Below are positions 33,099 to 60,117 of a stretch of 64,000 bases of DNA, in pieces. A program made the position numbers and the translations under genes. Origin of the DNA: Octopus vulgaris (Eukaryota). Under the pieces are notes generated by a model, which saw nothing but the letters and a program-made list of their open reading frames with translations, was not told where the DNA came from and did no database searches. The stretch covers positions 89,094,001 to 89,158,000 of the forward strand of contig OX597818.1 in NCBI GenBank assembly GCA_951406725.2. Reading direction: 5' to 3'. The stretch's first letter is position 1, and every line of letters starts with the position of its first letter.

Positions 33099-33167
<69 letters not shown>

Positions 33168-33393
33168 GAAATATTATAACAACTAAGTCTCTCTAAAAGA
33201 GAACAGCGGCAGCGTTCCCGGAAAATAATAGTTATCGCCATACTAATATGGCATTCTTATAAAAATAAGAAAAAAGCTGTCCGCTTATTAGCTCCATGAG
33301 GCCATCGCCTTAAGTTAGCTATTTGATACACAAACTGTATCCATATAACCTTCGAACAAGGGAGGTCAGTCGCTCCACACTACTTGACCGGCA

Positions 33394-33435
33394 GCTACAG
33401 ACGCGTTTCGGGGTATTGCCCCTTTTCAATGCAGC
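33394..33435 (-). ncRNA. Type I hammerhead, U3-A8 variant (copy 1)
   Basis: GCTGCA-TTGAAAA-GGGG caata CCCC-GAAAC-GC-GTC-TGTAGC. Confidence 0.88.
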
Positions 33436-33755
33436 GTAGCCAGCCAGTAGGTGTCGCTTCCGACAATCTCTGTTCGATGGTTTTATTTACCTAGTTTCGG
33501 TGGAATACATCCACTTGTTTTCAATAATAGAAATATTATAATAACTAAGTCTCTCTAAAAGAGAACAGCGGCAGCGTTCCCGGAAAATAATAGTTATCGC
33601 CATACTAATATGGCATTCTTATAAAAATAAGAAAAAAGCTGTCCGCTTATTAGCTCCATGAGGCCATCGCCTTAAGTTAGCTATTTGATACACAAACTGT
33701 ATCCATATAACCTTCGAACAAGGGAGGTCAGTCGCTCCACACTACTTGACCGGCA

Positions 33756-33797
33756 GCTACAGACGCGTTTCGGGGTATTGCCCCTTTTCAATGCAGC
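33756..33797 (-). ncRNA. Type I hammerhead, U3-A8 variant (copy 2)
   Basis: Identical to copy 1, 362 bp away. Confidence 0.88.
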
Positions 33798-34117
33798 GTA
33801 GCCAGCCAGTAGGTGTCGCTTCCGACAATCTCTGTTCGATGGTTTTATTTACCTAGTTTCGGTGGAATACATCCACTTGTTTTCAATAATAGAAATATTA
33901 TAATAACTAAGTCTCTCTAAAAGAGAACAGCGGCAGCGTTCCCGGAAAATAATAGTTATCGCCATACTAATATGGCATTCTTATAAAAATAAGAAAAAAG
34001 CTGTCCGCTTATTAGCTCCATGAGTCCATCGCCTTAAGTTAGCTATTTGATACACAAACTGTATCCATATAACCTTCGAACAAGGGAGGTCAGTCGCTCC
34101 ACACTACTTGACCGGCA

Positions 34118-34159
34118 GCTACAGACGCGTTTCGGGGTATTGCCCCTTTTCAATGCAGC
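34118..34159 (-). ncRNA. Type I hammerhead, U3-A8 variant (copy 3)
   Basis: Identical to copy 1. Confidence 0.88.
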
Positions 34160-34502
34160 GTAGCCAGCCAGTAGGTGTCGCTTCCGACAATCTCTGTTCG
34201 ATGGTTTTATTTACTAGCTTCGGTGGAATACATCCACTTGTTTTCAATAATAGAAATATTATAATAACTAAAACCATCGAACAGAGATTGTCGGAAGCGA
34301 CACCTACTGGCTGGCTAAGAATGCCATATTAGTATGGCGATAACTATTATTTTCCGGGAACGCTGCCGCTGTTCTCTTTTAGAGAGACTTAGTTATTATA
34401 ATATTTCTATTATTGAAAACAAGTGGATGTATTCCACCGAAACTAGGTAAATAAAACCTTCGAACAGAGATTGTCAGAAGCGACACCTACTGGTCTGGCT
34501 AC

Positions 34503-34544
34503 GCTGCATTGAAAAGGGGCAATACCCCGAAACGCGTCTGTAGC
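34503..34544 (+). ncRNA. Type I hammerhead, U3-A8 variant (inverted copy)
   Basis: Read directly on +: gctgca ttgaaaa gggg caata cccc gaaac gc gtc tgtagc. Confidence 0.88.
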
Positions 34545-34728
34545 TGCCGGTCAAGTAGTGTGGAGCGACTGACCTCCCTTGTTCGAAGGTTATATGGATA
34601 CAGTTTGTGTATCAAATAGCTAACTTAAGGCGATGGCCTCATGGAGCTAATAAGCGAACAGCTTTTTTCTTATTTTTATAAGAATGCCATATTAGTATGG
34701 CGATAATATATATATATATATATTTATA

Positions 34729-34792
<64 letters not shown>

Positions 34793-34849
34793 GTGTGTGT
34801 GTATACATACATACATACAGATATATGTATGTATATATACATATATTTC

Positions 34850-35406
34850 CCTCCTCTTTCACTTCACTCTCTCCCTTTTTCTCGTCTCTCCCTAATTCTT
34901 CTGTTCCTCTGCCTGTATCTCTCTTCTCTCTCTCCATGTAACCAGTGTTCGGCCAAGCCTGAACTTTCATTCTTGGTTCGACTTCCATCCGTGCAACATC
35001 TGTATTCCTCCCCATGCCTGTCATTCTGTTAGGTCCCTGCCGTAAGGCTTCACTTTCACACACGTCCTTAGTCGCAAGACACCTGTTGTTATGTCCTGTA
35101 TTTTTGCATTTGTATTTGTGTACTATTTGTCCGTTTTTTTTCTTCGTCCTTGCTTCCGTGTACATTCGCTGCTTTCTTCCAAGGAAGTTTTTTCTTGGGG
35201 CTGGCCAGATTGTAGCAATCTCGAGTGTAATCAGCCGAAATTGCAAAGATAATCTGGAACTCGACTGAGCACAGAAAACTTCGAATGACCCGTCCGTGTT
35301 TTTTCTTGTTCCTCTTTTGTATAATCTGTCTGGATGTTTTGTTGTCCCTTTTTTGTATCATCTAGCTATCTGGATGTTTTGCGTTATTGTCCCATTTTTT
35401 GTATTC

Positions 35407-35410: not shown

Positions 35411-35484
<74 letters not shown>

Positions 35485-35660
35485 AGAATTCACGAGAAAA
35501 ACACGAGACGAAGACAGGTGGTATAGAAAACAAACAAATGTATTAGTATAATGCTCGGGAATTGAAAAAGTCTTTTACGTTTAGAGCCTACACTCTTCCA
35601 CAGAAAGAAACGCAGAAAGAAACAAGGAGTGAAAAAAATGTGTGTAGTGGCTACCGATCT

Positions 35661-50375: not shown

Positions 50376-50410
50376 GTTTCTGACGAAGAGCTCCGCTCGA
50401 AACGTAAAAC
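50376..50410 (+). ncRNA. Minimal PLE-type hammerhead with loopless stem III
   Basis: GTTT-CTGACGA-A-GAGC tcc GCTC-GAAACGTA-AAAC, inside the TA-flanked element 50341-50511. Confidence 0.8.
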
Positions 50411-59554: not shown

Positions 59555-60061
59555 CCAACCACATGGTTCCGGGTTCAGTCCCACTGCGTGGCATCTTGGG
59601 CAAGTGTGTTCTGCTATAGCCCCGGGCCGACCAATGCCTTGTGAGTGGATTTGGTAGACGGAAACTGAAAGAAGCCTGTCGTATATATATACATATGTCC
59701 TGACGTCCTGGTTTTGTTGTTATCCTTACCATTATTGTTTTTACGTATTTTGTATTCTTATTCGTGCTATCATTATTGTTTTTACGTATTTTTGTATTTT
59801 TATTCGTGTAACATCGTCTGTTTTCCGTCCCTGTGTTGTATACATTCGAGGCTTTCTTCCAAGGAATTTAATGCGCTTGGCTTAGATTTCCCTTGGGGGC
59901 TGCCCAGATCGGAGCAATCTCAAGATTAATCAGCCGAAATTGCGAAGATGATCCGGTTCTTGACTGATGATTGAGGGCTTCAAATGTCCCGTCCGTGTTT
60001 TTTGTGTGGTCTTCTAAATGTTTCACGTTCTTGTCCCGTTTGTATATTTTTTTACTTTTAC

Positions 60062-60117
<56 letters not shown>

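Follow-up and report, generated by a model that had tools for sequence, protein, structure and literature searches.

A candidate hammerhead ribozyme with a split core in TA-embedded repeats of Octopus vulgaris

To our knowledge, no natural hammerhead ribozyme is broken between nucleotides A9 and G10.1 of its core. Eckert et al. (2023; PMC10085705) assumed that the conserved blocks of the hammerhead are uninterruptible; in the available text of that study the known alignments carry at most 1–2 nt inserted at A9/G10.1, and the only example from a known organism is one weak GCS candidate. Hammerheads with additional helices are cited in the accessible part of PMC11300833. Among mobile elements, non-LTR retrozymes derive from Penelope-like elements (bioRxiv 10.64898/2026.07.22.740005), and for the Naiads the available text of PMC8557442 gives no ribozyme fold, only the labels 'HHR_core' and 'HHR_half_core'; it describes the Naiads of cephalopods as long inactive.

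Here we describe a motif from 64,000 nt of Octopus vulgaris contig OX597818.1 (positions 89,094,001 to 89,158,000, forward strand; hereafter the window). A preliminary description had taken it for a structured RNA of a class other than the hammerhead; instead, we found every conserved hammerhead nucleotide and all three stems, rearranged into a pseudoknotted order (Table 1). Judging from sequence, it is very likely that the motif is a split-core hammerhead complete in its conserved nucleotides and stems, and that its intact copies cleave themselves after the AUC site.

Parts and wiring of the motif

The two window copies are 71% alike and represent two subfamilies (A1 and A2) of one repeat, family A, with thousands of copies, rather than two isolated copies. 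The three stems of the preliminary description were located at 35199–35257 and 59898–59956 and cross as it claimed; its upstream hairpin is present, and copy 2 does show C-G in place of T-A, together with one mismatch. The statement that no hammerhead was present proved wrong, as both CUGANGA and GAAA are found in each copy, and the inventory of stems was incomplete, with the 6-bp stem I and the outer helix P0 overlooked. The middle stem survives as a pairing of 5 bp, which is stem III, but not as a helix of 8 bp: its outer three 'pairs', including a C-A mismatch, are core nucleotides.

Table 1 Features of the two motif copies, in window positions
Feature	Position	Strand	Basis or remark
Copy 1: 5′-truncated, TA-flanked family A copy, older subfamily A1	34847–35405	+	
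Outer helix P0, 5′ strand (partner 35272–35287; internal loop)	35163–35178	+	Sequence
Hairpin H1, abutting P0 and G10.1	35179–35198	+	
Stem II, 5′ strand (G10.1 = 35199), detached from A9	35199–35204	+	Stem A of the preliminary description
Joining helix between the distal ends of stems I and II, 5′ strand	35205–35211	+	Stem B of the preliminary description
Stem III, 5′ strand, and C17	35215–35220	+	Analogy to hammerhead core; 5′-end pile-up
Predicted cut, AUC site	35220/35221	+	Analogy to hammerhead core; 5′-end pile-up
Stem I, 5′ strand	35221–35226	+	Overlooked in the preliminary description
Stem II, 3′ strand (C11.1 = 35236)	35231–35236	+	
GAAA core (G12–A15.1) and stem III, 3′ strand	35237–35244	+	
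Joining helix, 3′ strand	35251–35257	+	
Stem I, 3′ strand	35259–35264	+	
CUGANGA core, here CTGAGCA (G8C)	35265–35271	+	Predicted inactive
P0, 3′ strand, immediately after A9	35272–35287	+	
Copy 2: 5′-truncated copy, young subfamily A2	59696–60062	+	
Ribozyme candidate, core intact	59843–59986	+	Predicted active
P0	59843–59856/59973–59986	+	
H1	59859–59896	+	
Stem II	59898–59902/59931–59935	+	
Joining helix	59904–59910/59950–59956	+	
Stem III (C17 = 59919)	59914–59918/59939–59943	+	
Predicted cut, AUC site	59919/59920	+	
Stem I	59920–59925/59958–59963	+	
Core: GAAA; CTGATGA	59936–59939; 59964–59970	+	

From 5′ to 3′, the motif runs through P0, H1, the stem II 5′ strand, the joining helix, stem III with the site and the stem I 5′ strand, and then through the stem II 3′ strand with GAAA, the second strand of the joining helix, the stem I 3′ strand with CUGANGA and the second strand of P0. 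The block order is S-G-C, which is non-circular, and not the circular order without crossing stems of types I, II and III. Because the stem II 5′ strand is placed upstream, the core is split between A9 and G10.1. The wiring is that of a type-CSG/SGC hammerhead opened within block C; the uninterrupted block C of these types, in which the stem II strand directly follows A9, is absent. The break is closed by P0 and usually by a hairpin. P0 and H1 abut A9 and G10.1 without a gap in the A1, B and E copies that we tested, and their assignments fit poorly in copies of A3, C and D; family C has no H1, and P0 of family D has about 3 bp. The H1 loop varies in length and sequence between families, and there is no stem II loop.

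The 6-nt strand before CTGANGA pairs with the 6 nt after GCAATC to form stem I, in sequences that differ between A1 and A2, and this pairing places the AUC site in front of stem I. Stem III follows GAAA. Stem II joins the strand before GAAA to the upstream strand and opens with G-C: the G10.1–C11.1 pair is G-C in 33 of 35 copies from families A and C (G-U in the other 2) and G-C in the copies from B, D and E. CUGANGA directly follows the stem I 3′ strand in copy 2 and in families A–E. GAAA lies between stems II and III, the A15.1–U16.1 pair is present, and an NUH site (AUC, GUC or GUA) stands between stems III and I. GAAA and the stem III 3′ strand are invariant in 35/35 aligned copies, most of them chosen by descriptor, and CTGANGA is kept across subfamilies, with N7 taking all four bases. 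In energy folding the region did not stand out (z between −3.2 and +1.0 in 8 folds), and the pseudoknot was not recovered.

Copy 2 has the whole core, passes our strict descriptor and is predicted to be active. Copy 1 matches a natural tandem unit at 83%; its P0 pair beside A9 is broken, and its H1 carries an 18-nt deletion. At position 8, where it has C, 93 of 100 A1 copies have G and 0 of 100 have C. In the hammerhead, G8 is the partner of C3 and the source of the general acid (PMC11300833), so copy 1 is probably dead for self-cleavage.

Repeat families that share the fold

Family A is a protein-free, 5′-truncated, TA-inserting repeat with tandem units of about 750–830 nt. Its 3′ end is fixed in TA repeats roughly 130 nt after the motif and its 5′ ends are variable; several copies have a partial tandem copy upstream or an inverted copy. 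Tandem units measure 829 nt in A2, 834–848 nt in family B and 653 nt in family C, with one putative ribozyme per unit. Families A, B, C and E code for no protein. Among the open reading frames (ORFs) listed, none was shared by family A units, and we dropped a coding reading. Nor did these units contain an ORF with an N-terminal GIY-YIG and reverse transcriptase, remnants of the latter occurring only with family D, and no reverse transcriptase gene joined to family A was found. The A1 anchor has 1581 genome matches; A1 is the older subfamily, with best matches of 81–93%. A2 is young, the best 40 of its 3070 candidate matches being 96–100% identical, and family B appears to have moved very recently, as its best 40 matches are 99–100% identical.

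Several observations concern these repeats and their neighbours. Family B forms arrays of 3–4 near-identical units (C7:98.726-98.730 Mb and C15:67.735-67.738 Mb). Family A has an optional 3′ tail with a small conserved hairpin and TACGTA-like arms, seen at unit junctions in loci L049 and L017; in one genome copy (G000:C3:14320580-14320612) the tail is fused directly to the predicted cut site. Contigs C3, C4 and C7 hold another variant of family A, in which the 5′ strand of stem III is altered, and contigs matching the motif under four other organism codes carry relatives of the repeat. Elsewhere in the window, a tandem repeat of 362 bp (3.1 copies, 99% alike) lies at 33162–34660 with an inverted copy after it; within it is a minimal hammerhead-like stretch of Penelope type, in which the first half of the core is TTGAAAA. 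A canonical type I-like hammerhead with CTGACGA and 4-bp stems lies at 50376–50410 (+) and was missed by Rfam at gathering score. Adjoining copy 1, at 35482–35660, and in loci L009, L038 and L053, another TA-embedded family carries a minimal hammerhead on the opposite strand; in several of its copies the core has CTGTCGA or CTGTTGA (A6U), which may be a variant that they share.

We searched 1.09 Mb with the strict descriptor, comprising the window and 110 loci on both strands, most of the loci having been fetched for family A. This yielded 74 S-G-C cores, 65 with the upstream stem II strand and 1 with stem II after A9; five shuffles and the reversed sequence gave 0. Family B, which is unrelated in sequence, was found in 2 of 20 random 10-kb stretches and in one flank. 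A relaxed descriptor, run on 840 kb, added family C, with 0, 1, 0, 0 and 2 hits in controls at scores of 17–18, against 21–25. Families D and E came from a generic pattern (918 matches versus 11 in the control), and the central motif has 4945 exact genome matches versus 0 for its reversed control, which speaks against chance. Only 27 of 66 full-length, unselected A1 copies pass the relaxed descriptor, as expected of decaying copies.

In an alignment of 35 A and C copies, 93.8% of cells are paired, a figure inflated because most of the copies were picked by descriptor and are related. Both sides change in 12 of the 46 pairs, and 0/500 shuffles scored as high. Such two-sided changes affect 4 of 6 pairs in stem I and 5 of 7 in the joining helix, several of the latter being CpG transitions; within A and C, stems II and III change on one side only. 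We consider the comparison between families to be the stronger evidence. Across families A–E, order and core are constant and stem sequences differ: with one copy taken from each of the five, stem I has 5–6 bp, stem II 5–6 bp and stem III 3–6 bp, in different letters. The earlier proposal of a conserved pseudoknotted RNA and ribozyme candidate is supported, and so is its suggestion that the motif occupies the same niche as hammerhead elements.

Copy ends at the predicted site and competing explanations

To examine where copies begin, we took 100 A1 copies, with a downstream anchor as the sole criterion for their selection. Of these, 19 start between −2 and +12 of the predicted site. The rate of ends per nucleotide at risk is 0.010–0.016 in that interval, compared with 0.005 at −15 to −3, 0.001–0.0035 at −300 to −15 and 0.003 at +13 to +40. 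Independent ends at 0 to +12 number 17 versus ~3 expected (P ~4e-8, under a null that ignores microhomology); the ends near the site include 4 junctions to inverted copies and 2 duplicates. By hand count, 37 of 38 loci with TA junctions have them at the site or up to 11 nt after it, 8 exactly there; over the same stretch of contig C1, only 2 loci have them in the 15 nt before it. Upstream TA junctions at 15 positions amounted to 56 loci in ~1380 Mb, about one-tenth of the density. Of 32 family B junctions, also counted by hand, 27 are downstream, 3 upstream and 2 not family B; 23 of the downstream junctions fall at one TAT microhomology and none of the 32 exactly at the site. Most piled-up 5′ ends lie at TA microhomologies 4–7 nt past the site. 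The pile-up fits, though it does not prove, run-off at a cleaved end followed by joining at the nearest TA-like word.

These ends bear on whether the fold cuts at all. A real hammerhead-derived fold could be kept without cleavage, as a signal for binding or priming by the enzyme of the element, and three points speak for this: we found no precedent for the A9/G10.1 break, hammerhead cleavage is dispensable for insertion of an anole Penelope element in vitro (PMC11167929), and the end pile-up is mostly at TA microhomologies. We nevertheless consider it unlikely, as the catalytic nucleotides are fixed in five families, in which only N7 varies, and junction density drops about tenfold across the predicted site despite AT/TATA microhomologies just upstream. 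Cleavage might instead come from an unsplit core, with an ordinary stem II after A9 or with the hammerhead formed between two molecules. Small Penelope hammerheads are reported, in the title of one study, to cleave as dimers, and one family D copy permits 3 weak pairs after A9. Such a core is quite improbable, however: in 8/8 distinct family copies the strand that precedes GAAA forms at best 0–3 bp with the one following A9, whereas the upstream stem II strand makes 5–6 bp in the same copies and its partner co-changes between families. In a dimer, the strand after A9 would still be that of P0.

The preliminary description favoured a motif other than the hammerhead, HDV-like or of a new class and possibly on the minus strand. 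On that strand copy 1 does form a two-stem hairpin (z −3.2), and two apparent mismatches become G-U; but one of the two is the place where C17 faces A14 in the core, the G-U pairs of stems II, III and P0 point to the plus strand, and the minus strand of copy 2 reaches a z of only −0.9. We dropped a minus-strand hairpin pseudoknot once the core was found. Compared by eye on both strands with the HDV consensus, the motif has no P3/L3, P1.1, P4, GG element or C-R-A junction, and twister and pistol did not fit either. The Rfam scan that had been proposed gave no ribozyme at gathering score in the window; around the copies, with E allowed to reach 10, it gave two chance hits and nothing else (E 2.3 and 2.4). 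This explanation is therefore very improbable, and the same holds even more strongly for chance complementarity in an ordinary transposon end: the weak z-scores of whole-region folding would suit it, but it is refuted by the 0 descriptor hits in shuffles, by the presence of the fold with different stems in five families and by the covariation. A type III hammerhead, built from a small hairpin after CUGANGA and the following GAAT, was rejected for want of a stem III partner. The split-core hammerhead remains our preferred reading.

Relation to Naiads and to known hammerheads

Family D provides the direct tie to Naiads. It matches the 3′ end of Naiad_Ovul as printed in PMC8557442 and, at 13 of 30 loci, is preceded on its own strand by a Naiad-like thumb region. 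The identity of the thumb is our own reading, with RVT_1 support below the curated cut-off in loci L202 (E 1.3e-5) and L213; used as a query, the thumb fragment had no real Pfam match. For family A the tie rests on the fold and the insertion pattern, as no reverse transcriptase is joined to it. Its (TA)n targets, partial tandems, inverted 5′ copies and optional tail are of the Naiad type, and such structural marks are described as typical of Naiads and other Penelope-like elements (Craig et al. 2021; PMC8557442). When the supplement of that paper was searched with family A motifs, 11 motifs had 0 hits and one 8-mer had 3 unrelated ones, counts in which line breaks may hide matches.

We also read hits in this supplement by eye (60 of 62 for CTGATGA, 30 of 43 for CTGAAGA and 23 of 23 for CTGACGA, with CTGAGGA left out), taking entry names from file order. 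Among these hits, a subset of at least 50 Naiad families, we read the split form in 8 Naiad ends: 1 in the ctenophore position, with a stem I of only 2 bp, 3 near-identical ones of coral type, 2 unnamed (parts 12 and 19) and 2 from Octopus. P0 and H1 are clear in 6 of the 8. Another 5 ends, mostly nematode entries, have an intact type CSG, and several further ends did not parse. Some ends (parts 16–19, CTGAAGA and CTGACGA hits) are S-G-C with stem II unclear, or possibly an intact SGC with a 3-nt insert.

We propose that P0 and H1 would keep A9 beside G12 and G10.1 and so allow the normal active site to form. Cleavage would reduce tandem transcripts to single units, which may be re-ligated into circles, and a Penelope-like enzyme of the Naiad type may then copy the RNA into (TA)n, with reverse transcription running off the cleaved 5′ end and producing the pile-up of copy ends. 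Taken as one joint claim, it is fairly likely that the motif is a seventh hammerhead topology, opened at A9/G10.1, reclosed by a four-way junction and active in vivo; that it is the missing Naiad ribozyme from ctenophores to cephalopods; that it drives several spreading retrozyme families here; and that an unsplit CSG parent exists in other Naiads. If so, hammerhead core blocks would not be uninterruptible and more than six permutations would exist. Non-circularly permuted ribozymes, hitherto known from environmental sequence, would occur in animal genomes at thousands of copies, and the apparent absence from Naiads of the hammerhead that other Penelope-like elements carry would be directly explained. 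Descriptor and Rfam screens would then undercount ribozymes and retrozymes in invertebrates.

The octopus families resemble Naiads (PMC8557442) in their (TA)n targets, 5′ truncation, partial tandems, inverted 5′ copies, 30–40 bp tail and lack of a canonical hammerhead; they differ in that A2 and B look young. With non-LTR retrozymes, as described in the preprint text available (bioRxiv 10.64898/2026.07.22.740005), they share protein-free tandem repeats with one hammerhead per unit. Retrozymes are defined and searched for by type I hammerheads, so the octopus families, whose motif is S-G-C and split, would be missed by such searches. The PK hammerhead (Zhan et al. 2024; PMC11300833) also occurs naturally; it has an additional helix, and a pseudoknot forms at its stem II. 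There, however, G10.1–C11.1 follows A9 in a short stem-loop, and the connectivity is pistol-like and not S-G-C; pairing between the loops of stem II and helix IV is absent from the octopus motif. No published description of the split wiring or of a Naiad ribozyme fold was found in a search that left out subscription journals and preprint supplements.

The closest relatives are the non-circular types of Eckert et al. (PMC10085705, as far as its text is available). Type-SGC hammerheads (HRIMA-1 and variants) have the same order, the full core and a helix that links stems I and II at their far sides, and their linker between these stems is typically 3 nt, compared with 1–5 nt in the octopus families. 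They come from metatranscriptomes, with none in the genomes of known organisms, whereas the octopus motif is present in thousands of animal genome copies. In type SGC, the stem II strand directly follows CUGAnGA, whereas in the octopus motif it stands at the 5′ end and the gap is filled by P0, with or without H1. Type CSG, described from two metagenome sequences, has the same cyclic block order and a whole block C, without P0 or H1; the octopus form results if it is opened between A9 and G10.1 and its two ends are connected. Sequence comparison gives good support to regarding the split A9/G10.1 wiring as a new topological variant of the hammerhead.
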